Shown piece after piece: positions 1 through 36,321 of a stretch of 64,000 bases of DNA (the stretch's first letter is position 1; every line of letters starts with the position of its first letter). The notes under the pieces are model-generated. The model made no database searches and had not been told where the DNA came from. It saw nothing but the letters and a program-made list of their open reading frames with translations. Position numbers and translations under genes: made by a program. The stretch comes from Azolla caroliniana (Eukaryota > Plantae > Polypodiophyta), in NCBI GenBank assembly GCA_043228905.1, contig JBHGNT010000001.1, positions 22,568,001-22,632,000 of the forward strand, in the 5' to 3' direction.

Positions 1-139
1 CGTTGTACTTGACCTTGTAACCCACTTGCATCCGATCGGCTTCACACCCTTGGGGGCGTCAACCAGGTCCCATGTCTCATTTTTTGCCAATGTGCACATC
101 TCTTCCTCCATTGCGGCACGCCAATTTGTGTCCTTCGGC
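1..139 (-). pseudogene. Ty1/copia reverse-transcriptase N-terminal fragment (same family as C1/C5)
   Basis: Reverse strand translates KDTNWRAAMEEEM..LAKNETWDLVDAPKGVKPIGCKWV, the typical copia RT start; homologous to 12295-12316/16794-16900 and 63930-64000. Confidence 0.85.
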
Positions 140-769
140 AAGGTTATGGACTAGGAGGAGGAGAATTTTAAGGCTAATAAGAATACAAATAGATTGTAAG
201 AAAGAGATGTAGAGAACCTCGTGAATTCCACAAGTGTATTATATTAGATTAATATTTAGAAATCGTAATTAAACTCAAGAATCAACACCAACAATACAAC
301 TTTCTCCTCTCCTCATATAGTGATGGAAGAGGCTAAGTATATAACTTACCATATGGCAAGCATCATGCTATTTTGAAAGTGTTCATGCACACTAAATGTG
401 CATGAATCACTTTTTCTATCATGGTTTTCCATCTAATTATAGTGCTCATGCACACTAGATGTGCATGAGTAGCTATTTTTATAAAACGTTTTCTTTAACT
501 AAAGTTTTATGCACACTACACGTATATAAGTAGCGTTTTCTAGAATTTATATGTGAGGATAAAGTTTTCTAAATATTAAATCCATAATTATATTATTCAT
601 GATGAGTTGGTATAATGGTAAAGTTTGGGTTTGTTTACATGCGGGTACAGGGTTTGAAACTTGCCATGTGCATGTGATGTATATTTTAGTAATTTTTTCT
701 ATTTCTTTATTTTTATTTAATTGGGTACTCTGTACATATTTCATGTAATGTACGAAGTACACTACGACA
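140..769 (-). repeat. 3' LTR of G1
   Basis: Matches 9040-9229 and is the reverse complement of solo LTR 18756-19459; ends ...ACTACGACA next to the PPT CTCACCCCCTC. Confidence 0.85.
606..668 (+). other. tRNA-like (Pol III A/B-box) module in LTR U3
   Basis: A-box-like TGGTATAATGG (608-618), B-box-like GGTTTGAAAC (651-660) at tRNA spacing; homologue of 18860-18925. Confidence 0.55.
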
Positions 770-3714
770 CTCACCCCCTCCGAACTTGCACACCCTCGTA
801 TACTTTTCCATTTAATACTTTTCGAACTTCGTATGGTCCGAACCACCTTTGAGTGAATTTCCGTATCGTTCTGTGTTGATGATCCAAACTGCTATTGTAG
901 CCGATCACCCAATCTCCTTCTTCAATCTTCCGGGGTCGTCGATGGTATTTTTTTTCGAATCATCGTTTGCTATGGAATTGTGCTTCTTGTTGTCGGCATA
1001 CCGCTTCCGCTATGTCATTTGGTCTTCCTTCAAGTTGTCATATCCGGAACTCTAGTAGTTCTTCCCGACTCATCTCTTCCTTCCATGGTAGCACCGCCCA
1101 TGTCGAAATTGTGGTTTTCATAGGCATTATCGGAGCTTGTCCAGTCATAAGTTTTGCTGGCATATAACCAGTCACGGAACTATGTGTTGATCGATGCACC
1201 CATAGTGCATACGGAAGCATCTATGGCCAAATCTTCACCTTTCCATCACATGCTTTTGCAAGTGCTTTTACAATTGGACTATGTCATCTTTTGATCTACC
1301 CGTTTGCTTCTAGATTGTATGTCGTGGTTAGTGTCAACCATACTCTATGGTTCGCGAAGAATTCCCTAGATTTATCAGAGTCATGGTCTCCCCGATCCTC
1401 AATCACTTGTCCTACGCACCCATACCTACAAAACACTTCTTCTAAGAGAAATTGGCATACTACAGAACATGTTTTCCTCCGTCGCGCCCGACCTTCTACT
1501 TGGTTCGCCAAATCCTCCTAAGTTAGCACCAAGTACTTATTTTGTCCTGTCACGGTTGGCATGGCCGTGATGTTGACCCTCCATTTAAAGTTGATTGTCG
1601 GTGAGAATGTCGAATGTAATTAATCCCGGTATTGAACTGTAGAGTAGATTTGACATTTCTTGCAACTTTCCGTGAACTCCGCTACATCCTTGTACATATT
1701 CTTCCACCAATATTTTTGCTTGATCTTTGCAAATGTCACCCATGTTCCCCGATGACCACCCCAATCGGATTCATGAAATTCAGATATTATCTATTTTTGT
1801 TGTTCCTTTGTGCCAACTCCCTGTTGGTCTTTTCGGCTCCCTCCAGATTAATCCATTGTTCAAGAATAACTTCCGGACTTGCCATTTCTTCCTTCGGATC
1901 TCGGCTCTCTTTTCCTTATTTTCCAACGATTCCTCGATTTCTTGTAGCGCTTTCCCGATCAACAAGCTTTCTCCTTCGTATTCGTCTTCTCGGAACTCCT
2001 GAATTACGTTCACCCGGCATATGTGCTCTGAAGTAAAGTAGTCTTCGGAAACTTCTTCATTATCTGATTCGGCTACGTTGTTTCCAAACCGTGCCTTTGA
2101 TAACATATTTGCTACCACATTGTTGTTTCTTGAGATGTGTTGTACCTCTGGATTAAGCGACTTTACATATGCAATCCATCTTAGGATAGCAACATCCGGT
2201 ACCGTGCAACATCGCATCATCCCGAGTATCGGAAGACAATCCGTTTCGATCATTACTTTGGCTTCGATCAAATAATCCTGATCCAATTTTATAGTCGACA
2301 TGACTCCCCATAATTCTCTTTTGACTTGTGGATATCCGCGTTGCCTTTTGTTAAGAACCTTTGCTCTGAATATCTTGAGCCATCCGGATCAACTTGGTTG
2401 ATGGGCCATCTGATCCCGATTGGACTTGTATCAACTGTTACTATGATCGGTCTGTCATAGTTCAGCTTCTTAACCGCTTCCGCTCTCCATAGTGCTTTCT
2501 TGAGCTTCTTCACGGCTTTGGTGTGCTCCGGATTCCATTTGAACCTTTTCCCCTTCCAGAGCAAGTTAGAGTGGGTCCATAATGTGTGCATAGTGCGGAA
2601 TCCATATGTGATAGAATGCACATGCCCCAAGAAACCTGTGGACTTCGAATTGTGACTCGCATATTTCATTCATGGCTTCAATTGCATCGATCTTGGCTAG
2701 TGTCGGTCTTCCACCGTTGGGCCCACATAATGTCCGACTACCAGTATCTCGTCTTGTCCTAACACCGATTTTTCTCCTTAGAGTGTTAGGTGCACATCTT
2801 CTAACTTTTGTAGCACTTTCTCACAATCACAAATATGGTCAACTATGAACTTTTGACATCCCCGATCATCCATAGTCTCATCCTTTTTTTCCACCGCACA
2901 TCCTTTCATTGGAATGTTATTTAAGAACGACATTGTTATCTCCGGAATGTAGTCTCGATGCACCTTGTTCATTGCATTCATCATATATGCGGCCGAGTTC
3001 GTCCGGACACATCCAGACTAATCCTATCGGTCTCTACATTGTAGTGATATCCCGACTATCCATGTCTAGTTGAAATTGGTCATATCCAGAGTATAGGTCT
3101 TCGATAGAGTATATCGCACATCTGGAAAATGCTTCCACAAATTCATCCACTATCGGACCGAGTCCGGAGTTTTGGATCGTGACCTTGTTCACTGGTTGCA
3201 AATCTTGAATGAACCAGAGTGACCCATTCTTCTTCGGAACCGTAAACCATCGATTTGAGTACGAAGCGTGTGATGGCTCTAGAATCCCCATCGCCACCTT
3301 CTCCCTGAGCAAGTCAATGATTTTCAGAATATTTGCTTGTGGCACTAGAATCGGTTTCAGGTTCCACGACACATGATCAATTGTGAAGATCACCATCGGC
3401 TCCACTATCTTCGGGTCAACACACCCTATCTCTTTTGATGTGAATGCGAATACTTTTCCATGTTGCTCCAACATCTCACAGAATGGCTCTTCTTCATTTT
3501 GTAAGAGGAACTCGCCTCCACCAATCTAGAGTTTCTTTCGAGTCTCATCCGTAAATGTACGTCCAATATCCATGGACTTCCGAAGTGTCCGATATCCCGA
3601 GACTTCTTTCCTCTTTTGTTCACTATTGGTGGGTAATGGTCCCGCAAACGGTTTCACCTTCTTTTCCACGGTCTTATATTTTGTACATACAATTGATTCT
3701 TCTTTGGGGAGTGA

Positions 3715-4781
3715 TGTCGTGAAGATTTTCGGCAATGGTGTGAAAATCACATAAAATGTACAAAATCGAGTATGAATCACATAAAACAATAATAGTGAAA
3801 ATAACATTTTAAATAAGTTTAATATCTAAGTACAAAATGATGGAGGTCTTCATGAGCTTTCGAATGCACTTTATTACATGAGAAACGGACAACTAGATGT
3901 CAAGATATGAGGGTATAAAGTTTGTGAAAGTAGAAGAGAAAACTGTAAGATATCCCACATAGGCACGACAAATACGGCTCCCATCATATATAAGTAGAGC
4001 AAAAGCTATTATCTTTGTGTCTATGTGTGGAGCATAGAGAGTTCAAGGTAACTTGAACTAAGAGTGGAGGTGGCCTAGCCATTTGTAAAGGTTTTGGCCA
4101 ACTAAAATCGGACCAGCGATGGAGCCGGCAAAGCGACAATGGCACATCGGCAACCGATGAGGTGGCAGCCACCTTTAACCGGCGGCATCCGGCGAACTAG
4201 TCGGAAACCGACATCGGACGACTAGATAAATAAATATATAAATATATATACATATACAAGGAGGGCAAGTAAGGATTCAAACCTTGCAACTCTAAGTTAG
4301 GACTCAATTGGCTTACCACTAAGCCAAGATATTTAGTTGAAATTATATTTCTATCATCGTACTTTTACATGTAAATTCTTATGCATGAGAGCTAAAATAA
4401 GTGACATGGTTATCATGCACCACATGCAATACACGAGCGCCAAATGGCAAACATGCATCATATGCATGGGGGCATCTATAAAAGGATGGATGAAAATGTA
4501 TTATGAATCCATGTATGAACTAAGAAATTAATGAGAAGAAAATTCATTGATGATATATCTTGTTTCTTAAATCAAGAGTTAAAATCTTAATCTCAATATC
4601 TCTCTCTTGGCCATATCAATCTTTCTCAATCTAAGTCAAACATTTAATCTTAATCTGTTTCTCTCTCTCAATCTATCCTAAATACTTTCTCACTAAGCTT
4701 GGTGTGAACTTCGATCAATCCGGTCCAGAACCCTGGCGGTTCCGCCTCGGGATCCGGGCCTAGTGACGGATCTTCACGACA
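3715..4781 (+). mobile_element. Solo LTR, Phygy-like family (~1067 bp)
   Basis: Terminal inverted repeat TGTCGTGAAGA..TCTTCACGACA; flanks GTGA/GCGC (degenerate 4-bp TSD); removing the LTR plus 4 bp restores the host pol frame (EMGPDALPKEESIVCTKYK); U5 similar to G5 LTR. Confidence 0.85.
4262..4332 (-). other. tRNA-like module in solo LTR U3
   Basis: Minus strand: TGGCTTAGTGG (A-box, D-arm GCTT/AAGC) ... CAAGG-TTTGAAT-CCTT (T-arm, B-box GGTTTGAATCC); no intact acceptor stem. Confidence 0.7.
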
Positions 4782-5698
4782 GCGCATCCGGCCCCATTTC
4801 CGCAATGATCTCATACATCTAGACCAATTCCACTGGAACTACCCGGTCTCCCTGACTATTCTCTTCCGCAAGCTCTTCAAGTTATTTTACCGTGCTTCCG
4901 TAGAACACTTCTTCGACTACTCGTGTGATTTCTTCTTCTTCTTTTATGATTGATGCAGACTGTAACTCATCCTACATCTTCAAAAATTCTTTCCTCATTT
5001 CTCCGGACACGACCATGTACGTAGATGCCCCATCCGGACTGATTCACACTTGTTTCGCTCCGAGAGTTTTTTTCATGTGTGGGGTATCAGGGCTTCTCGA
5101 ACTATCACTTCCCCACTCCGCAATAGTCCGCTTTAAAAATCTATTTTTGTTTGGGACAAGTTCTCTCTTTTGTTCCTTTCGTGATTCGATGACATAGTCA
5201 AGAATTGAACAATTTTTCCTCCGCTTTGGCTCTGAATCTTTGCAAAAGTTGCTCCCCTGTCAAGCACCTTTGTTTCCATCCATGAAGTCGTGATGAAGGG
5301 TTGCCCAAGGATCACAAAATGTGAGACCTCATCTTGCACAAAGAAATTTTGGTCAATCTCCACATATCCAATCTTCACCATCACATCTGGACAAGCCGCA
5401 AATAGATATTCCGTTGCTTTTGTGGTTGCCCGGATCTTCCATCCATGACTGGTGTTAATAAGCCACTTCCCCTTCCGGTAGAGCTCCTTGGACATCAGAT
5501 TGATCTCTGATCCATGATCAATCAATGCAACTACGAGCTCTTTGATGTTTCCAATTCGGATCGGAGTCTCTGTAGCTGCTCGTGCCCAATGTGGCTTTGT
5601 GTAGTGGAAGTTCGGAATTTCGTCCTCTGCTTCCGTGTCATTCATTAGAATAATATTCACATTCACCCTTGGAACATTTGAATCTTCTGTAGCCTGTC

Positions 5699-8600
5699 TC
5701 TTTCTTTTTACGAGATCCACAAGGAGATTGTTTGTAGCCTTGCAATTCTCGGAGGGAAAATTCCACCTGACTATCAAGGATTCTCTCTTCAAACACCTTC
5801 TTTAGATCCGTTTGTTGTTCGATGTCCGAGGTGAGTTTTAATTCCAGAATCATTTTCCTTTTTCCTTTCCCTTTAGAGTTCCAACTCTCTGGTGTCTTTG
5901 ATGGTCTGACTGCATCATCCGTGCGCCGTCGCTTCTCATCTACATATACCTCATGTAATTGACATAAATAGTATACGCTACTTATATCTACGGAGCACTC
6001 CCATCCCATAGCTTCCCGGATGCCTTCCGCTGTGCTCCGGATTTCATCACAGTCAATTTTCTTAGAGATTTCTAGCGCTTCTAGTTAGAAAGATGCCTAC
6101 GCTCTAGATGTCTCACCCACACGTATTCCTGTGGTTGTTGCATAATTGCATTTTTCCGCTATCTCCTCCTCTAGGACCTTCTTCATGCCACATTTTCAGA
6201 AGTTCGGCCGGAGTGGCTTTCGAGAGTCCATTGAATGGATCCTATTTCCCTCATAGTAGATGAGATTCTGTCGTAGAGCCTCTTTGTGTTCATCGCAATC
6301 CTTTTGATCATGTTCGGTGCTATCACACCATATGCATCGACGGTCCATATACTTGGAATTTGAGGGATAGTCTCAAATCGACTTTCCAATGCCGAAAACA
6401 CATCGAGGACCTTCAGCCCCTTGTTTGGTGTTTCCAACCAATCTTTGAATCCCCTCCATGTTGCCTTGGAGGAGTCCTTGATAGCGAATGTAGTCTTCAG
6501 CGCTTCTTCAAACGCCACCCACGTCGGATTTTGTTGTCGTATCCCATGGATACTCCCTTGAAGCCCATTCATAGCCACCCCATTGAAGGAGGTCACTTGC
6601 GATCCTTCTGATATCCCGCATTGCAGCATCTCCACCTTGTAGTCCCGTAGATAACCCTTACGTGCAAAAACATTTTCTTACAAAGTTTCTACAAGTTAAG
6701 AAACAAACGCCCTACACCCTCCTCCTTGAGACGGGATCGCTTCCAATTGAGACCATGGCCATGGAAAGGGTTGTGGAATACATGTTGAAGGTTCAAAAAA
6801 AAAAAAGTCCCTCACATCAACTTCCTAGAATTGCATGGGAAGCAAGCAAAAAGATCCAAAAGATGCATAAAAGCAAATTTTGTGTTCCGGTTGGATGCAA
6901 GATATAGAAAAATGTTTTGGTAGATGGGATCACTAGATTCCTCAGTAAATGAGGCCTTTTTGCAACGCCACTGTATCATGACATGGGACAAATGTGGAGG
7001 CTCATGCTTCACACATTATACTACACATGTTGCACCTAACTACAAAACCATATTCTTCGCGGAATGGGGAAACCATATACATCGATACATGTTAGAGCCC
7101 ATCCCGTTATCTACCATTCAAACCATTGCTTCCATGCGACTTAGCTCACATGCATTGTGATGTGAGACATGGCGTTGGGGCACAAGTGATGAGAGTGGCC
7201 AGCTATGCACACTTTGTCCTAAACAAGTTCGAGAGTCTGAGTATCACACTTTGATACAATGCTCTACCTTTGATCATATTCGACCATGTGTTCTACATCT
7301 CTTCGACCGAGCCCAATCCTTGCACGAATTTCTCTCACAACCACAATGTGCACTCTCGATTGCAACATTCATTGGTAAAGTTCTTGAACATCGCAAGTCG
7401 CTACCCACTTTCACACGTATCACGTGAAATGTAATATTTTTGGTCTCATAGGTCATATTTGACCTCCGAAGACGATAATCTATCTATCTATCTTTCTTTT
7501 TATGAGATCCACAAGGAGATCATGGAACTCCTTCTTCGCAATTCCGAGCAATTCTCGGAGGGAAAATTCCACCTAACTATCAAGGATTCTGTCTTCGAAC
7601 ACCTTCTTTAGATTCATTTGTTGTTCAATGTTTGAGGCGATTTTGAATGCCAGAATCGTTTTCCCTTTTCCTTTCCCTTCAGAGTTCCAGCTCTCTGGTG
7701 ACTTCGATGGTTCGACTACATCATCCGTGCGCCGTTGCTTCTCATCTACATACACCTCATGTATTTGACATAAGGGGTATACATTATTTTTATCTACGGG
7801 GCACTCCCATCTCGTAGCTTCCTGGATGCCTTCTCCAGTGCTTCAGATTCCATTAGAGCTGGTTTTCTCGGAGATTTCTAGCCCTTGTGGCCAGAAAGAT
7901 GCCTTCACTCTAGATGTCTCACCCACATGTATTCCCGTGGTTGTTGCATAATTGCATTTTGCCACTATCTCCTCCTCTAGGACCTTCTTCATGTTGCCTT
8001 TTCAGAAGTTCAGCTGGAGTGGCTTCCGAGAGTCCATCGAATGGATCCGATTTCCCTCATAGTAGATGAGATCCCATCGTAGAGCCTCGCAATCCTTCCG
8101 ATCATGTTCGCCTCTATCACACCATATGCACCGATGGTCCATATACTTGGAATTTTAGGGTCAGTCTTTTGATTTTGTCACCATGGCAATTTTAAGATTC
8201 TCCATCTCCTTTAGCAACTTCTTTACCGTGGTTACATCGATTCCCTTCTGGGCCGTAGTCTCTCGAGCCCGTGTTGGTGGTCTTCTACGAACCTCGGCCT
8301 CAACGTCAGTTTCGTAGTCCACTTTTCTTCATCACCGAGCCATTGGCCCCTCTTTGTATATCGATCGAAGATGTCCCACACATTTTCCCATGTATTGGTG
8401 AGGCCACTCTCAGTAGTCATATCCTCTAGAAGCACTCCAAGATCTTTCCAGTACCGGACATCCATAGCTCGTAAGAACATGATCACTTTGTGTGGTATGA
8501 GGATAGCTTGATCTCTCGCAGACAACCTCCCGAATCAACTTTCCAATTCCAAAAACACATCGAGGACCTTCAACCCCTTGTTTGGTGTTCCACCCAATCT

Positions 8601-8810
8601 TTAAATCCCCTCCACGTTGCCTTGGAGGAGTCCTCGATAGTGAATGTAGTTTTCAATGCTTCTTCAAACGCCGCCCACATCAGATTTTGTTGTCGTATCC
8701 TGTGGATACTTCCTTGAAGCCCATCCATAGCCACCTGATTGAAGGAGGTCTCTTGCAATCCTTCTGACATCCCACATTGCAACATCTCCACCTTGTAGTC
8801 CCGTAGATAA
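5699..8810. repeat. Direct duplication of G1 gag segment (5699-6654 and 7491-8810) flanking the LINE
   Basis: Both copies start TCTTTCTTTTTA(C/T)GAGATCCACAAGG and end GTCCCGTAGATAA; the left copy has an internal deletion of ~365 bp near 6370. Confidence 0.85.
6655..7492 (+). mobile_element. 5'-truncated non-LTR retrotransposon (LINE; RTEX/L2-group-like ORF2 C-terminus)
   Basis: Translates ..MRLSSHAL*CETWRWG..LCTLC..ESEYHTLIQCSTFDHIR (C-terminal CCHC knuckle); 3' stem-loop AGGTCA-TATT-TGACCT; (TATC)n tail 7478-7492. Confidence 0.75.
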
Positions 8811-9229
8811 TGTGACATGTCCTTTCCATCAAATTGCCCGTTCTGTTGCAAGAGTCGCTCTACTGCCGCTGGGACTTCTGACATCGCACGTTGCTCGTAC
8901 AACATTTGCTTGAACATTGTCATCATGTTGCTTGCCTCTTTTTGATTCTCCATCTCCTTACCACCCGGTTGCACATCAGGTTCACAAAATGTGTCATGCC
9001 TTTCGGCGGCGGATCATTGCGTGACTAAGGTGGAAACCGTAGAGATTATGGAGGAGGAGGAGGAGGAGAATTTTAAAGGTAATAAGAATTCGAATGGATT
9101 GTAAGAAAGAGACGTAGAAAACCGTGTGAATTCCACGAGTGTATTATATTAGATTAATATTTAGAAATGCTAATAAAACTCAAGAATCAACACCAACAAT
9201 ACATCTTTCTCCTCTCCTCATATAGTGAT

Positions 9230-11365
9230 CCTTTAATTATCATAATTACTTCTAATTACAACTCCCTTTATCCCAAAACCGGCTCCCCATCCATACTTTG
9301 GCCTAACCGGCCAACACATGGCACGCCCGTGAGACAATACCTTGTACGTGGAACCAACGGGTTAGACCCTTCACTCATCCTCTAGAATATCCAGAATACT
9401 CTGGTCCAGGGGTTCCAACGGTTCATCGGGTAGTTGCTCCATCTGCTTCTGCTACTGCTACTCCGATTGTTGTGGCAACTGTTGCTGTTGCTCTTCGACC
9501 TTATCCTCCTCTCTAGCTCCATACGCTCCCGGCTCTACTGGTATCGGCCCCTCTGGCTCTGGCACCTCCTTCCTTGGCTTCTCCTGTTGCTCCTGTTCTG
9601 CTTCCGTTAGCTCTTTTGGCCTGGCTACTTCTGACTGCTCCACTCGAGCTTTGTCTGGCTGGCCTCCTCCGGTTCTAGCTACATTCGGTGGCTGCTCCGG
9701 AGATTGCTCTTTGTCACTTATGTTGATTTCCGTTGTCATTTGTGATGCCACTTGCCATCTATGTTCCCGCTCATACCGCTCAAATTGGAGTTGAGTGGCA
9801 AGTTGGTCATCATCCAACTGTTCTACCAGCCGCCTCATAGCCGCCAATTGTTCTCTTGCCAGGGACAAGAAATCTTCCGACAACTCCTCCCGGATGGTTA
9901 CAATGCTCTCCGCATCCATCTTGTAGAAGTTGTCACCGTCCTTTCTTCGGTTCTCAGCATCCGCTCAAAACGTCTGTAATTCCGTCGCTTGTTGTGCCCA
10001 TTTTGACCACCATTGCACAAAGCTTTCACCAATCATACTCTTTGTCCTTTTTTTCCATGCTAGCATAATGGCGCTGATCCGATTGAACCCCATCTTGGAT
10101 TTGTCCTCCGCCGCCTGCTTTTCCTCCTTTAACTTCTTTATCAGGCTTGCGGTTTCCTGTGCTTGCACCCCATATTCCAGCAATTGGGTCTGATACATTG
10201 TTTGAACCCTATTCAGAGCCAAATTTGCCCATTCCATCTTGTCATAGTGTTGTCCGGTGATCACCGTGGTTTTTCTTGCCACTTCCTCTAGCAGCTTTGC
10301 CGACTCAAACGCTAGCACCTCCGTTTTCTTGGTTACTTCATTCCAAAGTTATCTTATCTTCTCCTGTTGCCGGTCACATTCCGCCATCAACTTCTTGTGC
10401 TCTGCTACCAAGTGTTTGTGATCTCGGTGCACTCATTCAAAGTCCTCGGTCTTTTGATTTAACTTCCGTTTGATTTGACTTCTTGCTTAGTATTCTTTGT
10501 CTTTCTGTTGTCAGAGTTCTTCTTTCAGTCATTCAATCTCTCCTTCTGCCATCCATTGCAACTTGTCTTTTTCTTGCAGTAGTTTGTCTTTTTCCTCTTT
10601 TAACCGGTTGTTGGCTACTCGAGTCTTTTGGAGGTTTTCTTCTATTTTTTGTTTCTCCTCCTCCGTTGTCTTCTTTTGTTCTTTGTCTCTGGCCCGCAAG
10701 GCCTCCTGAGTTGCTAACTCCTCCCTTAGGTTGGAGAGTTCTTGTTCGCGCACATTACTTGTGTCTGGCATTGTAGGAGCCACGGACGTGTTATTTATCT
10801 GTTCAGTCACCGGTGCCACCGGTTCTGGTCTTGTAGGTCCCGAACTGACCTATCTGGCCGTGTCTACTTTGGCCTTCTCAACTTCTTCCTCCATGCTCCA
10901 GATTCTCAACCAGGCTTTCTTGAGTTCTTCGGTTGTGGTGAACAACCGGTTCCATTGTGCTCTCTCTTCGGCTTCAATCTGGCTTACCACCCCGGCCACC
11001 TGCTCTCTGATCGAACGCAACCATTGACTGTCGGTGCTTTGTTGCCTTGGTGGTTCAGGTTGTGGTCTCGGCTCTAGTCTCGCCTCAAGCCCTTGTTGCC
11101 CTATTGTCTCTAGTAACAACTCCTTCTCTTGTTGTGTTTGTCGACTTGGTGAGGTAGGAAGTTCTATCACCGGTTCTGGTAGTACCGGTGCCACCGTTTC
11201 TAGCCGAACATGCCCGGTCTCTTGCCTTGGCTCTCGTCCCTTGGAGCAGGGAGTTTGTGTGTTGTCTTCTACCGGACCCGATTCATCCCCTTGCTGCTCC
11301 GTGTCGCTTCTCTTCGGGCGACGTAGGCAATTGTTGGCGGTTTCTTCCTCCGCCTCCTCCTATTG
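9230..11365 (-). pseudogene. Remnant of a long coiled-coil extra ORF, probably from the 3' region of an Athila/Tat-like gypsy element
   Basis: ORFs 10850-11194, 10529-10819, 9965-10318 and 9458-9919 share one frame split by stops; E/Q/K-rich heptads; resembles the G4 extra ORF (EEEA..RRPKR). Confidence 0.55.
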
Positions 11366-12974
11366 GGTTCAGCTGTAGGTACACACCGGAGCAAAACGGT
11401 GTGGCCGAAAGGAAGAACCAGTCGGTTTTTGACGCGGCAAGGGCAATGTTGGAGGAGAAGAGCATGCCCCATTTCTAGTGGGCTGAGGCGGTTCGGATGG
11501 CCGTCTACATCCAAAACCGGATTAGTGACAAGGTGTTCGCGCATGAGCTGTATTTCGGGTGCAAGCCGAATTTGAGACACCTTCGAATATTCGGTAGCAT
11601 TACATATGTGCATGTGCCGGATGAGAAGCGGAGGAAGTTGGATGCAAAGTCGGAGAAATGCATCCTAGTCGGTTACTCGCATGAGCAAAAGGGGTATAAG
11701 TGTTATAACCCCCAGATGAAGCAGGTCTGAGTTAGCCGGGATGTTCAAATTTGATGAGACGGAATCATGGTATGCCTTACCGGCTCCGACTTCCGACCCT
11801 GACCCAATACCGGAGGATGGGGCTAGTGAGCCTGAACCGGTCCAGTTAGAAGACGCAGGGTTCAAGACTCCAGATATGAGTCCAGAATCATTTCGGTTAA
11901 GTGGACCGAATGAGCGGCTGAGTTCAGGATGACCGGTCGGATGAGGAACCGGCGAGTAGTGGAGACTCTGCCGTGCTCTCCCCGCGCAAGGAACCGAGGA
12001 GCCGGTTCACGCACAAAGAGAAGGGGAAGAAGAAAATTTTGGAATATGAAACCGGAAATGTTGAGTCGGATCGGAGCGAATCCGACTCCAGTAAGGATGA
12101 AGGCGGATCTTCGGAAACGAAGTTCAACTTGGCCAAGAAGTGCCCAAAACCGGGTAATACCAAGTTACGCCGGTTTTCCCGCCTGAAAAACCCCGTTACG
12201 CGATATGGGTACAATGAGTACATGGCGCATCACTATGCGTACATGACCAAGGTGGCGGAAGTGCGTGAGCCGGAGAGCTACGCAGAAGCGGTAGAGGACG
12301 CAAATTGGCGTGCCGCTGTCGTGGCGTGGCTCGCCTAGAAGCGTAGCGTTGTGTAGACAAAAGATATCGTGAAAGTGAGGAAGGAATCACTGGGATTATG
12401 GACGGAAGAGACGAAAGAGTAGAGATAGATAAATAGTGATCAACAAGATATGACAAGATAGGATATAGAATGATATTTGAAGCAATAAAAGAGATTTATA
12501 ATTATTTGATAAAAGAGTTACAAAATGATTGTGCACATCATTGAACCTCTGAACTTTGTCTTGCAAGGTAATCGCTCTTCTCTTTCTTGATCGTAGACCA
12601 TTACAATCTTCACTTCAATATTTTGATGAAGATAAGGCTCGAACCGCCTCCTTCTTGTTGAGAGTTGACCACCCCGACCGCCAAGCTAAAGCTCCACGTT
12701 TATGTTAAACTTCTTCCCTTCTTTCTCTTTCTTTATGGTATCTCTTATGAAATATATAATTTGATTGATATCTCATACATATCTCCCCTTTGATCTTCTC
12801 TTTCACCATTTAAATAGGTGCCCCCATGCATATGATGCATTGGAGGGTACAAATCATGCATGTAGTGCATGAAATGCATGTGATGCATGATAAACATCTC
12901 GCTCATTTGAGCTTTTATGTATGAAACAATATATGCAATAACAATAAACATGAAAACATAATCTTAAAGAGAAA

Positions 12975-13195
12975 GGGCCTGTCCTAATGCTAGGTGTGTC
13001 AACTTTGGTGTATGAGGTTGTGGGTTCGAGTCTCAAAATGTTGTTGAATACAACATACAACTTTATTTTTATATCATGATGCAAATCCTTTATGTAATAT
13101 AAAGTATGCTTTATTTTATGTATATTACTAGTATAGAGTAAATGGTAAGATTTGAGAGTCATAGGGTGGGGTTATTGGTTCAAGTCCTCTCTTGT
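12975..13195 (+). other. Two tandem tRNA-like modules in LTR U3 (also at ~16383-16603 in the other LTR)
   Basis: GGGCCTGTCCTAATGCTAGG...GAGGTTGTGGGTTCGAGTCTCA (B-box 13023-13032) and TAGAGTAAATGG...GGTTCAAGTCC (13134-13187). Confidence 0.6.
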
Positions 13196-13425
13196 TCGTG
13201 TAATATAATATATTTATCTATATATATATATATATATATATATTATTTTTCTTTACATATATATCTAATATTATCATATGTGTTGTTAATATTATATTTA
13301 TATATAAAACATTATCAAATGTTATTTTAGTTACGTATTTATCTTATTGTAGATTTTTAATGTGAAGCTTTCGTACTTCACGACATCCACCCCCTCTAGA
13401 CCTGCACATCCTCCGGCATGTGCCA

Positions 13426-15657
13426 CTATCTTTCATCTTCATGTTGATCTATAGGAGGAGGTTCAAGCTCGAACCTTCTTTTTAAAAAACTTTTATTCTC
13501 TTTCCAAGTACCAAATTCTTTTGGTATCGAATGATCTCGAAGGTCTACCTTGTTCCTCTCATGATTTGGGCGAACTGTCATAAATTGTACAGTTCGTCGT
13601 CCATCTTGGCTACGGATTTTCGCATAGGCAGAACCATTGTCGAGGACTTTGGTCTCCATTCGTACCGCTGTAATGTATGGTTGCCCCAAGATTATTGGAT
13701 AGGTAGATCCTTCTTGCACAAAGAAATGTTGATCTACCTCTATATCACCAATAGTAATCTTTACATTTGGGCATGCACCAAATAAATCTTCCGTGACTGA
13801 TGTGGCAGCTTTTACTCGCCAACCATGTTGAGTATCAATTGGCCATTTACCTTTCCTGTAAAAATTAGCACTCATTATATTTATTTCAGAACCATGATCA
13901 ATAAGTGCCATCACGGGGTCTGGAACATTTCCAATCTTCACATGAGTCTCAGTAGTGGCTCTTGCCCAACATTTGCGAGAGTAATGGCTTCTTACATCTG
14001 TTGAATTTATCATTGAGGTTGATGCATGTTGAGAGTCAACAACGATATTGTTTGACTCGTTGCTCACCACTTCATATGCCACCTTCGGATTTGTCTCTTT
14101 AACCTGCTCATTTACTTGCTTCTTTCTTCGCACAATATCAATTATTTCATCATGAAATTCCTTTTTTGCAATACCTAACACTTCTCTTAGTGTAAATTCT
14201 ACTCGACTGTCTAGTATTCTTGTTTCTAAAACTTTCTTTAAATCTGTATCCTTTTCAATATCAGACATTAATTTGAATGAAGGACCAGATTTACCTTTTT
14301 CAACTTTTGCGTCCATCTCTTTTCTTTTGCTTTCTCTTGTTTCATGCTTTTTGGTTGAGCCAATCTCATCATCCGATCTTTTCCTTTTTTCTTCCACTAT
14401 CACCTCATGCTCTTGGTGTTCTGCCATCTGAGCATAGACTGTCATAACATCTACTGGAACATCCCATCCAGTGTTTTTCCTCACAGAATCTCCGGCAACA
14501 CGAAGGTCTTCCATCTTCATCTTTTGCTTTTGTGCGGTACTTACAACCTTCTCCCAGAATGATGATCGGGATGGCATGTCATCGAGGCGCATTCCTGCCG
14601 TTGCCGAGTAATACATTGCGGAAGCCTTCTTTGCTTTAGCTTCTTCAAATTTAACCTTAACACCACCATCACCAAAGTTCTTTGTAAGCGGAGATCTAGT
14701 TTCAGTTAAGTAAATGTTACCATTTTTCCAATAGACCAAGTCTCGATTCTCCATGTCTTTATATTCTTCACAATCACGTAGACGATGTTCGAGACTATCA
14801 CACCACATGCATCGAGGTCGAAATGGTTCCCTTGACCTCGAAGTTTGACCATTCTCAAGCTTTGCCACTTTAATTGTTAGATCTTTCATACTTTGAACTA
14901 AATCATCAAGCAAAAACTCACTCTTAGTTCCCGTCATTTCTCGTGGTTGATGGACCATTTCGTGTGATGGTTCTTGACCAAGTCTTTGAACTTCAATGTT
15001 TTGCTCAAGCCGATTTGTGTTTCCCACATGTGGTATTTGTAGCATTACACCATTCCTTTGCATTCTTTTCATAAATTTATTACAAGCATTTGTTACCTCA
15101 TTCCAATCTGTCGTTATACCATCCTCAGTATTTGGCACTTCAAGCATAAATTCCAATTCTTTTCTATATCTCTTGTCAACTGCCTGCAAAAATAAAGCAA
15201 CCTTTTGCCAAGACAAAGAATTTCTTTCTTCTGGCTTTAGGTGTCCATACATCATATCAAACTCTTTTTTTGTGTCAGACACAGATAACCCTTTATCTTC
15301 TTTTAAGATCCATTCATGAAATGAACGCATAGTAACTCGAGAGAAATCCTCACGAGCATATTCAGACACAAGTGCTTCTTTGAATGCATTCCAATCCAAA
15401 CTATGCAATGCTTGTATTTCATGAATTCTATCTCTTAATTCCATGTCCACTAATTTATAAAAGTTTGCTATCATATTGACATCATTTATACCAGACATTT
15501 CCATTTCATCATAATATATATTCACATACTTCGAAATATTTGTGCCATCAAACATACCAATCTTCTCTCGGACTTCTCGTAAGGCATGAAATAATCGATC
15601 TTGATTCAACTTTTCAATAAACAACATTACCGGATCCATTGCACTCGTACTTGCCAT
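13426..15657 (-). CDS. Intact 743-aa Gag-aspartic protease polyprotein
   Basis: Uninterrupted ORF; Gag N-term (GMFDGTNISKY), zinc knuckle CMWCDSLEHRLRDC, protease LIDHGSEIN...IILGQP; no RT, RH or IN core. Confidence 0.92.
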   Translation of the reverse strand: MASTSAMDPVMLFIEKLNQDRLFHALREVREKIGMFDGTNISKYVNIYYDEMEMSGINDVNMIANFYKLVDMELRDRIHEIQALHSLDWNAFKEALVSEYAREDFSRVTMRSFHEWILKEDKGLSVSDTKKEFDMMYGHLKPEERNSLSWQKVALFLQAVDKRYRKELEFMLEVPNTEDGITTDWNEVTNACNKFMKRMQRNGVMLQIPHVGNTNRLEQNIEVQRLGQEPSHEMVHQPREMTGTKSEFLLDDLVQSMKDLTIKVAKLENGQTSRSREPFRPRCMWCDSLEHRLRDCEEYKDMENRDLVYWKNGNIYLTETRSPLTKNFGDGGVKVKFEEAKAKKASAMYYSATAGMRLDDMPSRSSFWEKVVSTAQKQKMKMEDLRVAGDSVRKNTGWDVPVDVMTVYAQMAEHQEHEVIVEEKRKRSDDEIGSTKKHETRESKRKEMDAKVEKGKSGPSFKLMSDIEKDTDLKKVLETRILDSRVEFTLREVLGIAKKEFHDEIIDIVRRKKQVNEQVKETNPKVAYEVVSNESNNIVVDSQHASTSMINSTDVRSHYSRKCWARATTETHVKIGNVPDPVMALIDHGSEINIMSANFYRKGKWPIDTQHGWRVKAATSVTEDLFGACPNVKITIGDIEVDQHFFVQEGSTYPIILGQPYITAVRMETKVLDNGSAYAKIRSQDGRRTVQFMTVRPNHERNKVDLRDHSIPKEFGTWKENKSFLKRRFELEPPPIDQHEDER

Positions 15658-15701
15658 GTTGATGTTGATCTTTACTTTAGATGTCTCTTCTACTTCCCCG
15701 T

Positions 15702-15719
15702 TTCACGTCGGGTTCACCA
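15702..15719 (-). promoter_or_regulatory. Primer-binding site complementary to tRNA-Trp
   Basis: + strand TTCACGTCGGGTTCACCA matches the 3' end of plant cytosolic tRNA-Trp as I recall it; related PBS at 18741-18755+19464, 31627-31644 and ~8972-8990. Confidence 0.8.
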
Positions 15720-17007
15720 AATTGTGTCGTGGCGTGGCTCGCCTAGAAGCGTAGCGTTGTGTAGACAAAAGATATCGTGAAAGTGAGGAAGGAATCACTG
15801 GGATTATGGACGGAAGAGACGAAAGAGTAGAGATAGATAAATAGTGATCAACAAGATATGACAAGATAGGATATAGAATGATATTTGAAGCAATAAAAGA
15901 GATTTATAATTATTTGATAAAAGAGTTACAAAATGATTGTGCACATCATTGAACCTCTGAACTTTGTCTTGCAAGGTAATCGCTCTTCTCTTTCTTGATC
16001 GTAGACCATTACAATCTTCACTTCAATATTTTGATGAAGATAAGGCTCGAACCGCCTCCTTCTTGTTGAGAGTTGACCACCCCGACCGCCAAGCTAAAGC
16101 TCCACGTTTATGTTAAACTTCTTCCCTTCTTTCTCTTTCTTTATGGTATCTCTTATGAAATATATAATTTGATTGATATCTCATACATATCTCCCCTTTG
16201 ATCTTCTCTTTCACCATTTAAATAGGTGCCCCCATGCATATGATGCATTGGAGGGTACAAATCATGCATGTAGTGCATGAAATGCATGTGATGCATGATA
16301 AACATCTCGCTCATTTGAGCTTTTATGTATGAAACAATATATGCAATAACAATAAACATGAAAACATAATCTTAAAGAGAAAGGGCCTGTCCTAATGCTA
16401 GGTGTGTCAACTTTGGTGTATGAGGTTGTGGGTTCGAGTCTCAAAATGTTGTTGAATACAACATACAACTTTATTTTTATATCATGATGCAAATCCTTTA
16501 TGTAATATAAAGTATGCTTTATTTTATGTATATTACTAGTATAGAGTAAATGGTAAGATTTGAGAGTCATAGGGTGGGGTTATTGGTTCAAGTCCTCTCT
16601 TGTTCGTGTAATATAATATATTTATCTATATATATATATATATATATTATTTTTCTTTACATATATATCTAATATTATCATATGTGTTGTTAATATTATA
16701 TTTATATATAAAACATTATCAAATGTTATTTTAGTTACGTATTTATCTTATTGTAGATTTTTAATGTGAAGCTTTCGTACTTCATGACACCGCTATGGAG
16801 GAAGAAATGCGGGCACTTGATTCCAACGACACATGGGACCTAGTTGACCCCTCCCTAACACTATAAAACGATCGGATCTAAGTGGGTGTACAAGGTAAAG
16901 TACAATGCCGACGGTTCGGTTAACCGGTACAAGGCCCGGTTAGTGGCGAGGGATACGCGTAGACCCACGGAATCGACCACGACGAGACCTTCACTCTGGT
17001 AGCGAAG

Positions 17008-18083
17008 ATGACGACGGTTCGTGTGGTGCTAGTGGTTGTCGCGGCAAGGGGGTGGTATCTTCACCAAATGGACGTGAAGAATGCATTTCTACAAGGCGAT
17101 CTTGAAGAAGAGGTCTTTATGACCCAACCCTCTGGTTTCCAGTCGAAGATGCACAAGTCCGCGGTATGCCGGCTGAAGAAGTCACTTTATGGCTTGAAGC
17201 AAGCCCCCCGAGCTTGGAATACGAAGATCACGCACTGGTTGCGTAAGATGGGGTTTGCGGCTTCCAAGTCCGACTCTTCGTTGTTCATCCGACAAGGTTC
17301 CGACGGTTCGGTTTGCATCTTGCTGTATGTTGATGATCTAGTCATCACCGAACCCAGACTCGATGAAATCAACGGAGTCAAGTCCCAACTGTCAGAAGCA
17401 TTTGAGATGAAGGACCTGGGGGACCTTCACTATTTCCTTGGGATCGAGGTGATCCGAACCCGTGACGGCATATTGCTCTCACAAAGACACTATGTGTTGA
17501 ATATGTTGTACAAGTTTGGCATGACGGAATGCCGACTAATCTCCACACCCCTGGACCGGAACCAGAAGCTCCATCCTGACTCTGGACTGACCTGCGATGA
17601 GAAGCGGTTCCGACAAATGGTCGGAAGCCATATATATTTGACAATCACCCGACTTGACATTAGTTATCCGGTCGGCATGATCAGCCAATATATGCAGAAG
17701 CCGACCGTGGAGCAACTTCTGTGCACGCATCGGATTTTGCGATATGTGAGCGTCACGAAGGACCGGGGGCTGTTATACCAACATGGTATAACCGAAGAGC
17801 TAGTCGGCTACACCGATGCCGACTGGGCTGGCGATGCATCGGATCACGGATCCCCCTCCGGCTATATGTTTTCCCTTGGTAGCGCAACTGTTGTGTGGTG
17901 TAGCAAAAAGGAGCCAACAATGGTCCTTTCGAGCACAGAGGCTGAATACCGGGGTGCTACCGTTGCCACTTGTGAAGCCATTTGGCTTCGGCGACTGCTG
18001 CAAGACCTGCGGATCGAGGTGCCGACCCCCATCCTGATCTACTGCGACAACATCAGCATCATGCAACTCACCAAGAACCCCGT
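17008..18083 (+). pseudogene. C1 reverse transcriptase / RNase H
   Basis: QMDVKNAFLQG, LKKSLYGLKQAPRAW, LLYVDD, YTDADWAG, SSTEAEY, YCDN motifs; cut by the G2 insertion. Confidence 0.9.
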
Positions 18084-18755
18084 TGTCGGAGAAAAAGGCG
18101 CATGAACCGGCTCTTACGTGGGTGGACGCGAGAATTGATATTTTGTACATAATGCATAATTAAGTCGGTTGATGTAAATACTAGGTAGTACACATTTATT
18201 AGGGAATTTGTGCGTATCTCTGTCGAAAGGGATAGGGAATAAAGCGATTTGACTAGGGAAGGAGGGTCTCCCCTTGGCGAACTACTTAAGGAGGGAGAGA
18301 AGGAAGAAAGGGGATCGCGCGTTGGCGAGGATGAAGTGCTGTTGCAGAACCGAGGGCCGAGCTCTCTGTCTCCGATCGTCGTTCTTTGTGGGTGTCGGGA
18401 GTTCGCTGCCTCTGCTCCGTGGATAGCCTGTGTGCTTCCAACAGAGGCTCTCTCCCCCCCCCCCCCCCCCCCCCCCCCTCCCCCTTTTTGTTTCATTGAG
18501 TCGAGTGGCTGTCGTCTGTGTGCGTGAGTAGGACCCCGTGTCAGGTCCATTACCGGTTTGCCGGTTGTAACTGTTCGAGTTGTAAGCTACTGATTATAGT
18601 AATCGGATTCCTGTTTCTTGCTCTTATTTTCTTTCTGTGTATCTGCAACTCTCTCTCTCTCTCTCTCACTCTCTCCTTGGTCCAAGACCCCCGTGGTCCC
18701 GCCTCTTCTTACACGCGAACGCGAAACTTCGCGACATAATTGGTGAACCCTACGT

Positions 18756-19459
18756 TGTCGTAGTGTATTCGACACACTACGTGAAAACCATAAAATAATA
18801 TATCCGATTTTAGATACATATAAATAAATAAATAAAATGTCAAAATATTTATCACGTGCATAGGGCAAGATTCGAACCTTGCACCTCCACGTAGATAAAC
18901 TTCAACTTTACCATTGAAATAACTTATCTTTAGTGTTATACATATAGATTTAATACGTATAAGACCTTTATTTACACATACCTTTATAAAAAGGTAAAAA
19001 TCATGTATTGTTTAGGGTGTGAATATTTTATTTACACGTGACATTGAAAGTGACTCATGCACATCTAGCGTGCATGAGCCCTATATTTAGGAAATGACAA
19101 AGCATCACATGCACATTTAGTGTGCATGGACACTTTTGGTGAAAAAGCATGGAGCCATGCTTAGCCTCTTCCATCTTTATATAAGGAGGAGAGAAATATG
19201 TATAAGGTTGTTGATTAATATACAAGGATTGATCAATCTAATACATTCGTGGGATTCACGAATTTTGCCATCTAAATTACTCTTATAATCTAAATATTGT
19301 TTTAAATACACTAAACTCGTGGGATTCACGAGATTGCTATCTTACTTCTCTTTCTACTATTCCTAACTAGCCTTAAGTTGTATTCCTCTTCCTCCTAGTC
19401 AAAAACCTCGGCGGTTCCCACCCGACTCACGCAACGATCCGGAGCCGAAAGGCACGACA
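18756..19459 (+). mobile_element. Solo LTR of G1 family inserted in the PBS of G2
   Basis: TGTCGT..CACGACA; TSD ACGT (18752-18755/19460-19463); homologous to 140-769. Confidence 0.9.
18860..18925 (-). other. tRNA-like module in solo LTR U3
   Basis: Minus strand ..TTCAATGGTAAAG....GGAGGTGCAAGGTTCGAATCTTGC (T-arm GCAAG/CTTGC, B-box at 18869-18878). Confidence 0.65.
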
Positions 19460-19616
19460 ACGTGAACATGCGGCAAAGGAGTCGGAAGATGAGGGGATCG
19501 AAGCTAGCAGAGGCAATGGCGGTAGCCGTCGACCGACTGGTGAGCACTCGCGAGGGGACGGGTACCCTCTGTTGGGAGACAGGTCCCTCCGGATGGGAAG
19601 GGAGAAGAACAGTGTT

Positions 19617-19830
19617 GATGAGGTGTACCCGGCTACAGAGAGCCAAATGGTGCGGACCCGGTGAGAACCGGATGAGGAGTACCCGGCTACGGAGAGTCGG
19701 ATGGTGTAGACCCGGTGAGAACCGGATGAGGAGTACCCGGCTACGGAGAGCCGGATGGTGCAGAACCGGTGAGAACCGGATGAGGAGTACCCGGCTACGG
19801 AGAGCCGGATGGTGCAGACCCGGTGAGGAG
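19617..19830. repeat. 54-bp tandem repeat x4 in C2 5' LTR U3 (x5 at 24400-24665; x3 at ~36105-36262)
   Basis: Unit GATGAGGAGTACCCGGCTACGGAGAGCCGGATGGTGCAGACCCGGTGAGAACCG, starts 54 bp apart. Confidence 0.92.
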
Positions 19831-20325
19831 CGGTCACCGGATGGAGAGACATATTCGTAAATATGTTTCTGAGAGTCCATCGAGGCTATATTTGTAAATA
19901 GCCGAAAAGTCATATTAGTATAAATATGACTTAGGGCAAACTTATTGAGTGTGATGCAAGTGTTGTTATTCATGTCTGCGAGAGATCAGAGCGCGTAACT
20001 GTGTACAGAGAGAGAGAGAGAGAGGAAGAGGTCGTTGCCTTTGTTGTAACCGCCGCCTGTGGCGAAGACAGAAAGCTCGAGGTCGTTGCCGTGGTGCTTT
20101 ACTGTTGTACACTATAACATAGTGATAGTTTGCAGCCTGCGGGCTGCTGTGGTTTTTCCCTAGTTTGTGTTTTCCACGTAAACATCCTGTGTACTCTTCT
20201 CTTCACTGTGTCGTGCATTCTTACCTGTTTTCTGTGTATGATTCTAAGCTCGGTTGTGGCCGAGCATTGCATATATGGAGCGTGTAGTTCCCGTCAAGTG
20301 GTATCAGAGCGAAACGACACAGAAA

Positions 20326-24342: not shown

Positions 24343-25143
24343 AGGGGGAGTTTGTTGGGAGACAGGTCCCTCCGGATGGGAAGGGAGAAGAACAATGCTG
24401 ATGAGGTCTACCCGGCTACGGAGAGCCGGATGGTGCAGACCCGGTGAGAACCGGATGAGGAGTACCCGGCTACGGAGAGCTAGATGGTGCAGACCCGGTG
24501 AGAATCGGATGAGGAGTACCCGGCTACGGAGAGCCGGATGGTGCAGACCTGGTGAGAACCAGATGAGGAGTACCCGGCTACGGAGAGCCGGATGGTGCAG
24601 ACCCGGTGAGAACCGGATGAGGAGTACCCGGCTACGGAGAGCCGGATGGTGCAAACCCGGTGAGGAGTGCTCACCGGATGGAGAGACATATTCGTAAATA
24701 TGTTTCTGAGAGTCCATCGAGGCTATATTTGTAAATAGCCGAGAAGTCATATTAGTATAAATATGACTTAGGGCAAACTTATTGAGTGTGATGCAGGTGT
24801 TGTTGTTATTCATGTCTACGAGAGATCAGAGCGCGTAACTGCGTACAGAGAGAGAGAGAGAGAGAAGAAGAGGTCGTTGCCTCTGTTGTAACCGCCGCAT
24901 GTGGCAAAGAAAGAAAGCTCGAGGTCGTTGCCTTGGTGATTTACTGTTGTACACTATAACATAGTGATAGTTTGCAGCCTGTGGGCTGCCGTGGTTTTTC
25001 CCTAGTTTGGGTTTTCCACGTAAACATCATGTGTACTCTTCTCTTCATTGTGTCGTGCATTCTTACCTGTTTTCTGTGTATGATTTTAAGCTCGGTTGTG
25101 GCCGAGCGTTGCGTATACGAAGCGTGTAGTTCCCGTCACCCTC

Positions 25144-35637: not shown

Positions 35638-36321
35638 TGACGGGAACCCAACGTTCCTTATGCGCGACGCTCGGCCACAACCGAGCTTAGAATGATACAC
35701 AGAAAATGGGAAATAAAACACGACACAAAGAAGAAGAGAATACACAGGAGGTTTACGTGGAAAACCCCAAACTAGGGGAAAAAAAAAATCACGGCAGCCC
35801 ACAGGCTGCAAATTGTCACTATGTAATAATATACAACAGTGAGCTCACTGAGGCATCGACCTCGTGCTCACAGATCTTCGCCACAAGCGGCGGTTACAAC
35901 GGAGGCAACGGCCTCTTTCTCTCTCTCTCTCTCTTTGTACAGTTATGCACACTGATCTCGTGCAAAACAGAAAATGACAACAACAACTAAAAGTTTGCCC
36001 TAAGTCATATTTATATTAATATGACTTTTCAGCTATTTACAAATATAGCCTTGATGAACTCTTAGAAAACATATTTATGAATATGTCTCTTCATCCGGTT
36101 CATACCGGGTCTGTATCATCCGGCTCTCCGTAGCCGGGTACTCCTCATCCGGTCTTCACCGGGTCTGTGTCATCCGGTTCTCCGTAGCCGGGTACTCCTC
36201 ATCTGGTCTTCACAGGGTCTGTATCATCCGGCTCTCCGTAGCCGGGTACTCCTCATCCGGTTTCGGCCGAGGCACTGTTCTTCGGCACTGTTCTTCTCCC
36301 TTCCCATCCGAAGGGACCTGT
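35638..36321 (-). mobile_element. LTR of C2-related copia family (solo or truncated) inserted in C1 RNase H
   Basis: Reverse complement of the C2 LTR (TGACGGGAA..), with three 54-bp units; the last ~9 bp and the TSD are lost to a deletion. Confidence 0.8.

Follow-up and report, generated by a model that had tools for sequence, protein, structure and literature searches.

tRNA-like Pol III promoter modules in the long terminal repeats of Phygy-like gypsy retrotransposons of Azolla caroliniana: candidate TFIIIC docking sites

Examination of a 64,000-nucleotide stretch of the genome of the fern Azolla caroliniana (GenBank assembly GCA_043228905.1, contig JBHGNT010000001.1, positions 22,568,001 to 22,632,000 of the forward strand; hereafter the window) revealed paired A- and B-boxes, arranged as in tRNA genes, in the long terminal repeats (LTRs) of several gypsy retrotransposons. 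These modules are real and resemble RNA polymerase III (Pol III) boxes already known from other LTRs; their function we infer from sequence. The evidence supports their identification as tRNA-derived type-2 Pol III promoter sequences. The explanation that we favour, with a probability of about 0.45, is that several Phygy-like LTR families carry the modules as selected, candidate docking sites for TFIIIC which would keep the neighbouring RNA polymerase II (Pol II) promoter open. The modules are listed below by position in the window and strand; F and L numbers denote LTR families of the window and related loci, respectively.

608..660 (+): antisense module of the F1 LTR, the weakest copy; A-box 608-618, B-box 651-660 with C56T and T60A
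4274..4326 (-): antisense module of the F2 LTR; perfect A-box 4316-4326, B-box 4274-4283 with C56T
12980..13032 (+): TATA-proximal antisense module of the F3 3' LTR; intact B-box 13023-13032, A-box with two mismatches
13134..13186 (+): distal antisense module of the F3 3' LTR; intact B-box 13177-13186
12636..12688 (-): sense module of the F3 3' LTR, about 130 nt downstream of the TATA-like site
16388-16440 (+), 16542-16594 (+) and 16044-16096 (-): modules of the F3 5' LTR, copies of those of the 3' LTR
18869..18921 (-): antisense module of a solo LTR related to F1; intact B-box 18869-18878, AGGT at 18883-18886, A-box 18911-18921

An earlier, sequence-only reading of this DNA had proposed A/B-box pairs at tRNA spacing, and all the sites that it named are present and exceed chance in both profile and shuffle comparisons. 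When both strands of the window were scored with a profile from which the family being scored had been left out, the antisense modules obtained 18-40 bits, against 8.8 bits for the best background site, with the 608 module at 27-33 bits and the F3 sense modules at 17-21 bits. Because circularity was to be avoided, an independent profile was trained on 18 of 20 aligned tRNA genes of phage T5, the other two, which have no GG in the D-loop, being dropped. Across the window the modules took ranks 1-8 and 10 with this profile, the F3 sense pair standing at ranks 7-8. Six modules scored 26-32 bits, which falls inside the span covered by the training genes; individual values were 29.0 bits for the 4274 module, 26.3 for 12980, 31.9 for 13134, 27.5 for 18869 and 19.1 for the sense module at 12636, and the 608 module (15.6 bits, rank 10) was level with one background site. 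In each of four U3 regions, none of 1000 shuffles matched the observed score, so that on sequence alone the tRNA profile scores exceed those of shuffled DNA.

All antisense modules of the window lie within U3, upstream of a TATA-like site, and are directed to the 5' end of the LTR, a placement that the sequence-only reading had described correctly for every pair it named; the antisense module nearest to TATA is 150-290 nt away from it. The orientation is not universal, as had been supposed. F3 has a sense module in each LTR, with a counterpart in the relative L033, and sense modules also occur in other relatives.

Relatives were collected with an anchor independent of the modules, the purine tract (PPT) followed by the LTR-start pattern, which gave at least 121 metagenome loci. 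In 96 of these, the gap within A/B pairs of at most two mismatches was 32 nt for 18 of 21 antisense pairs and 33 nt for 5 of 8 sense pairs; a gap of 32 nt corresponds to tRNA positions 20-51. A strict B-box combined with at most one mismatch in the A-box gave 10 antisense matches, against a mean of 0.1 and a maximum of 2 in 30 shuffles. Conservation across 24 modules extended to columns outside the search motif, such as T13 (0.82), T20 (0.91), A21 (0.89) and the variable-loop positions A44-G45-G46-T47 (0.85-0.94). Identity between clusters was 0.75 in the B-box and 0.64 in the A-box, both values being partly circular, and 0.32 in the anticodon arm. Boxes that are better conserved than the spacer across families fit selection for factor binding, and the data agree with selection acting on DNA boxes and their spacing, not on an RNA fold. 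In two comparisons of F3-like groups, variable columns numbered 4 of 20 among key columns versus 28 of 35 among the others (p=3e-5), and 6 of 20 versus 28 of 35 (p=4e-4). F3, the youngest element, has three intact B-boxes. Contig depth, summed over public contigs with four organism labels and thus giving sums and not copy numbers, was about 4.5-146 times higher over the AGGT/B-box block of the 18869 module than over its spacer.

The modules are no longer tRNAs, and the cloverleaf has been lost. ARAGORN detected no tRNA in the window or in the 60 of 121 relative loci scanned, and a search of the window and two short cuts against Rfam gave no match to RF00005 at E-values up to 10 and none to 5S rRNA. 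A cloverleaf covariance model of our own, built from 20 T5 tRNAs, gave the window modules at most 8.6 bits, not above background; among 48 of the 121 relative loci several of the top-scoring rows were modules, all at 15.7 bits or less. The modules therefore fail the covariance comparison while passing that of sequence. Pairing in the acceptor, D and anticodon stems across 24 modules was no better than with shuffled partners (p 0.83-0.93), and that of the T stem was marginal (p 0.11). The arm pairing reported earlier can be found in the D-arm at 4262, one base off the tRNA register, but it is no general trait, no stem being conserved across the 24 modules. The supposed resemblance of the 12975 module to tRNA-Arg(UCU) was not confirmed either, as positions 34-36 read TTG and not TCT. 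Comparison of two module regions with phage genomes by blastn returned chance matches, none annotated as tRNA among the 20 matches listed for each, and a primer-site pattern search in viral contigs found none. A conserved fold-back around the B-box was tried as a candidate structure and rejected, reaching p<0.05 in just 4 of 26 antisense modules.

These results bear on the proposal that the product itself is functional, namely a short transcript made by Pol III, of about 85-120 nt in F1 and F3, which would run antisense to the U3 portion of the element's own transcript and would tune silencing or packaging. Such an RNA would account for the retention of both boxes and their spacing, as initiation needs, for the T4 run that 8 of 8 F1-group copies have 23-31 nt after the B-box and for the good folding of the 18830-18930 strand (z -3.7), but its body is unconserved (spacer identity 0.32), the fold-back is rarely significant and z is weaker than -2 in five of the six modules folded. 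The first T4 in F2 lies 166 nt away, and T runs are common in AT-rich DNA. We consider this proposal improbable. Over all modules, a T4 run follows within 64 nt in 23 of 26, which is weak evidence, the DNA being AT-rich. Contigs from a public run guessed to be RNA overlap 3751-4484; they are unstranded and their ends are not resolved.

Under the favoured explanation, pieces of tRNAs or of short interspersed nuclear elements (SINEs) would have entered the LTRs at least twice, as the 32-nt antisense and the 33-nt sense types, and would then have been duplicated. TFIIIC would bind the boxes and place TFIIIB on AT-rich DNA just upstream (the DNA upstream of the modules is 80% AT), which in antisense modules would put the TFIIIB site between the module and the TATA box. 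The Pol III complex would exclude nucleosomes, or block silencing and read-through from upstream, in the manner of yeast tRNA genes and B-boxes, and would help copies inside repeat nests to be transcribed, any short Pol III RNA being a by-product. A partial likeness exists in trypanosomes, where divergent upstream tRNA genes are said, in work attributed to Nakaar in 1994, to be needed for U6/U3/7SL expression. In both cases a tRNA-type unit facing the opposite way would, through its A/B boxes, assist the promoter next to it; the trypanosome genes helped are reportedly Pol III genes at a fixed distance, whereas here it would be a putative Pol II LTR promoter at 134-348 nt.

Yeast TFIIIC sites stop Pol II read-through (PMC4228148) and limit silencing, and tRNA genes insulate in animals (PMC9540200). 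The modules would most likely work like these barriers, made of tRNA-gene DNA (tDNA) or of extra-TFIIIC (ETC) B-boxes bound by TFIIIC; those barriers are chromosomal sites of the host and were tested in yeast and animals (PMC4228148, PMC9540200), whereas the candidate site here is borne by a plant retrotransposon. In a bolder version, tRNA promoters would have been captured repeatedly by a gypsy lineage and converted into portable TFIIIC insulators that flank its Pol II promoter on one side or on both. They would then be, for plants, the first tDNA barriers borne by transposons, and would act against silencing in methylated repeat nests; we regard this version as doubtful.

A number of observations weigh against docking sites under selection. 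The listed metagenome contigs belong to one accession series, so the relatives may come from one campaign. The better preservation of boxes than spacer, which holds across families, has no significant counterpart within the F1 group (8 of 20 key columns variable versus 22 of 35 others, p=0.16) or the F2 group (10 of 20 versus 23 of 35, p=0.27), where identity in key columns is 0.83 versus 0.69-0.78 elsewhere. The depth peak at the 18869 module extends about 15 nt beyond the B-box. The substitution C56T, expected to weaken the B-box, is present in the 608 and 4274-4326 modules and in 7 of 24 antisense modules, is common to F2 and the relative L041, and makes up 19-29% of the depth around 18874. 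The distance from module to TATA varies from 134 to 348 nt. U3 modules occur in 24 of 95 loci and 8 of 31 LTR clusters (some clusters being truncated or chimeric), and four of the eight gypsy LTR types of the window (F4-F7) are module-free. A CAA motif at -10 to -3, a transcription enhancer in plants (PMC13578239), accompanies just 4 of 24 modules, and the barriers cited in the relevant part of PMC9540200 are from yeast and animals, not plants.

The modules may instead be passengers, that is, tRNA pseudogenes or heads of tRNA-derived SINEs which fell into AT-rich U3 and spread with the LTR lineages, decaying and conferring no benefit. The patchy presence in 8 of 31 clusters, the two orientations and two spacer types, a C56T shared within F2 and common elsewhere, the lack of a significant box excess in F1 and F2, the broken B-box of L014, a module outside any recognised Phygy LTR in L051 and a tRNA-like pseudogene in the flank of L028 all agree with such an origin. 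Neutral decay, however, would not keep the boxes, the AGGT and the exact 32-nt gap while the spacer has fallen to an identity of 0.32 and the stems are gone, nor does it fit the strong key-column excess in F3-like groups or the three modules retained by the very young F3. On balance we find passengers rather unlikely.

Among 95 loci in which the LTR spans 280 nt or more, U3 modules were antisense in 20 and sense in 4. The sequence-only reading had named absence from most family members as refuting; within the carrying families almost every informative member had a module, yet most LTR clusters had none. Because most clusters do without it, the module is optional. U3 had a GC content of 0.35 in 15 carriers versus 0.47 in 34 non-carriers. 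Integrase is present in the carriers F1, L012, L044 and L054. In an integrase tree drawn from 43 of 102 upstream regions, with six module carriers of which one (L052) is probably chimeric, carriers were interspersed with non-carriers, the sample being too thin to order gains and losses. LTR homology ends before the module position in L049, L051 and L067, which are uninformative on module loss.

Some LTRs hold two or three modules. Sense modules lie downstream of TATA in F3, L033 and an LTR in L003, the L003 module sitting in the LTR of another Phygy element, and within U3 in L012, L096, L059 and L111. Four sites of at least 13 bits were found in 72,861 bases of upstream DNA, two of them within other Phygy LTRs, and one clear module copy, in L051, lies outside the recognised Phygy LTRs. 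The L051 module has a 33-nt gap and a partial tandem copy, and stands about 1150 nt past the LTR start in an AT-rich repeat which may be SINE-like or of another repeat family. A tRNA-like pseudogene with a paired acceptor stem, which we take to resemble tRNA-Gly, was seen in the flank of L028 at 955-1025 (-). The LTR of L042 (about 550-760) shows two weak sense B-box-like repeats after TATA, the best at 10.7 bits, under the 99% null. Palindromic motifs containing TGCA cluster ahead of the TATA-like sites in U3, as at 19050-19130 and 12830-12900, with a mean of 4.4 per 600 nt in carriers versus 2.4 in non-carriers.

The closest known relatives of the modules are in the Helenus family of miniature retrotransposons with terminal repeats (TRIMs) and TRIMp3 (Kojima 2024, PMC10886601), which likewise have tRNA-derived LTR sequence with conserved A- and B-boxes and no functional tRNA, probably with several origins from SINE-like insertions; in both cases the function of the module is putative. 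Helenus elements are non-coding, 311-1263 bp long, with a single plant family, from Selaginella, and 5-bp duplications, and their module is taken as the element's own promoter (PMC10886601). The carriers described here, unlike them, are Phygy-like, span several kb, encode gag or gag-pol and have a TATA-like site and NCGN duplications of 4 bp; their modules are mostly antisense, with up to three per LTR. They are not members of the TRIMs, because their size, coding capacity and duplication length all fall outside the TRIM definition. Cassandra TRIMs also captured and long retained a Pol III internal promoter in plant LTRs, but theirs is the type-1 promoter of 5S rRNA, driving the element's own RNA (PMC10886601), whereas here the boxes are of the type-2 kind found in tRNA genes, sit within long elements and mostly face outward.

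It could be supposed by analogy with these TRIMs that Pol III initiates element RNA at the sense modules and that antisense modules are inverted leftovers of such promoters. The sense modules, both those after TATA (F3, L033, the LTR in L003) and those in U3 (L012, L096, L059, L111), would agree with this, as would L017, L110 and L099, where a weaker sense A-box faces the antisense A-box across one near-palindromic B-box. The carriers, however, are several kb long and contain T runs and TATA-like sites, antisense outnumber sense U3 modules by 20 to 4 loci, the two spacer types differ, and it has been argued that long elements must use Pol II (PMC10886601). A Pol III start of element RNA thus seems decidedly improbable to us. 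Head-to-head A-boxes around one B-box, seen in the first 260-310 nt of the LTR in L017, L110, L099 and L086, form a possible two-way promoter.

According to the account of Repbase given in PMC10886601, "not a few" LTRs hold tRNA-like pieces, of which TRIMs alone were analysed there; Pol III boxes have been described in the LTRs of miniature non-coding elements and are regarded there as the promoter. No description of tRNA boxes like the present ones was found in the literature searched, most subscription papers being outside its coverage. That long coding elements have conserved, mostly outward and sometimes triple tRNA promoters suggests a role different from the production of element RNA. 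If TFIIIC binds the modules, high-copy LTRs would scatter potential barrier sites through the plant genome, and module-bearing and module-free sister families would offer a direct test of tDNA insulation in plants.

The window is filled by a nest of gypsy and copia LTR retrotransposons, in which gypsy reverse transcriptase (RT), RNase H and integrase domains were detected. The gypsy LTRs start with TG and have a common PPT and a common primer site, the latter following four 5' LTRs. Their target duplications are 4-bp NCGN, exact in 5 of 7 insertions, two of these after a 1-2 nt shift of the ends, with one mismatch in F5 and two in F2. The primer-binding site is presumably of the tRNA-Trp type, which would be consistent with the dominant Phygy type. 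A 4-bp NCGN duplication and a tRNA-Trp primer are traits of the Phygy clade of mosses, non-chromovirus Ty3/gypsy elements (Neumann et al. 2019, PMC6317226). These traits suggest that the module-carrying elements are Phygy-like gypsy elements, with matching duplications and a presumed Trp primer. The portion of the Phygy literature consulted (PMC6317226) mentions no Pol III boxes in LTRs. The host elements are as follows.

134..769 (-): 3' LTR of the full-length, degenerate gypsy element A (F1), with the PPT directly before the LTR at about 770-785
313..320 (-): TATA-like site of the F1 LTR, a putative Pol II promoter
3715..4781 (+): solo LTR F2, an insertion into the pol region of element A
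4476..4483 (+): TATA-like site of the F2 LTR
12317..13385 (-): 3' LTR of the young non-autonomous element F3; 4-bp duplication CCGC
12810..12817 (-): TATA-like site of the F3 LTR
13426..15702 (-): open reading frame (ORF) of F3, 758 aa, gag/protease-like; DUF4100 match just below the cut-off
15703..15719 (-): primer-binding site of F3
15725..16789 (-): 5' LTR of F3, with the same three modules as the 3' LTR
18756..19459 (+): solo LTR related to F1; 4-bp duplication ACGT
19177..19184 (+): TATA-like site of this solo LTR

The sequence-only reading had linked the modules to an apparent CpG targeting. For Phygy elements, NCGN duplications have already been published as a trait (PMC6317226), and they are also found in the module-free window families F4, F6 and F7; because of this, CpG targeting gives no support. 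Of the interpretation offered there, the type-2 Pol III origin stands, while the universal antisense design and the CpG link do not. That the modules serve as landing pads, attracting Pol III-targeting retroelements as for yeast Ty3 and persisting through nesting dynamics, is scarcely credible, with no insertion just upstream of any window module and with Phygy elements inserting at NCGN.

The view that the LTR families do not obviously align elsewhere was not confirmed, as they are partly related. The LTR holding 606 aligns with that holding 18860 over most of its length (294-720, at 67%), and the LTRs at 4262 and 12975 align over 4381-4479, between module and TATA, at 71%; the first pair cannot be aligned with the second outside the termini and the module. 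Element A keeps remnants of RNase H and integrase. The F3 LTRs differ by one mismatch and 4 nt of length, and a domain search of the window found no RT or integrase in F3. This very young 4.5-kb element (12317-16789), with one intact gag/protease-like ORF, is inserted in a copia RT region. The solo LTR F2 (3715-4781) has in its 5' part a block common to F4/F5 LTRs and is apparently chimeric, 3835-3971 being the block of F4-type LTRs; a second TATA-like site lies near 3990, and the LTR starts of L085, L086 and L099 resemble F2 without the F4-type block. The F1-related solo LTR at 18756 landed at a CG within the primer-binding site of the Phygy-like element F7. Finally, copia LTRs with 54-nt tandem repeats in U3 occur at 19563-19970, 24346-24807 and 36087-36285.

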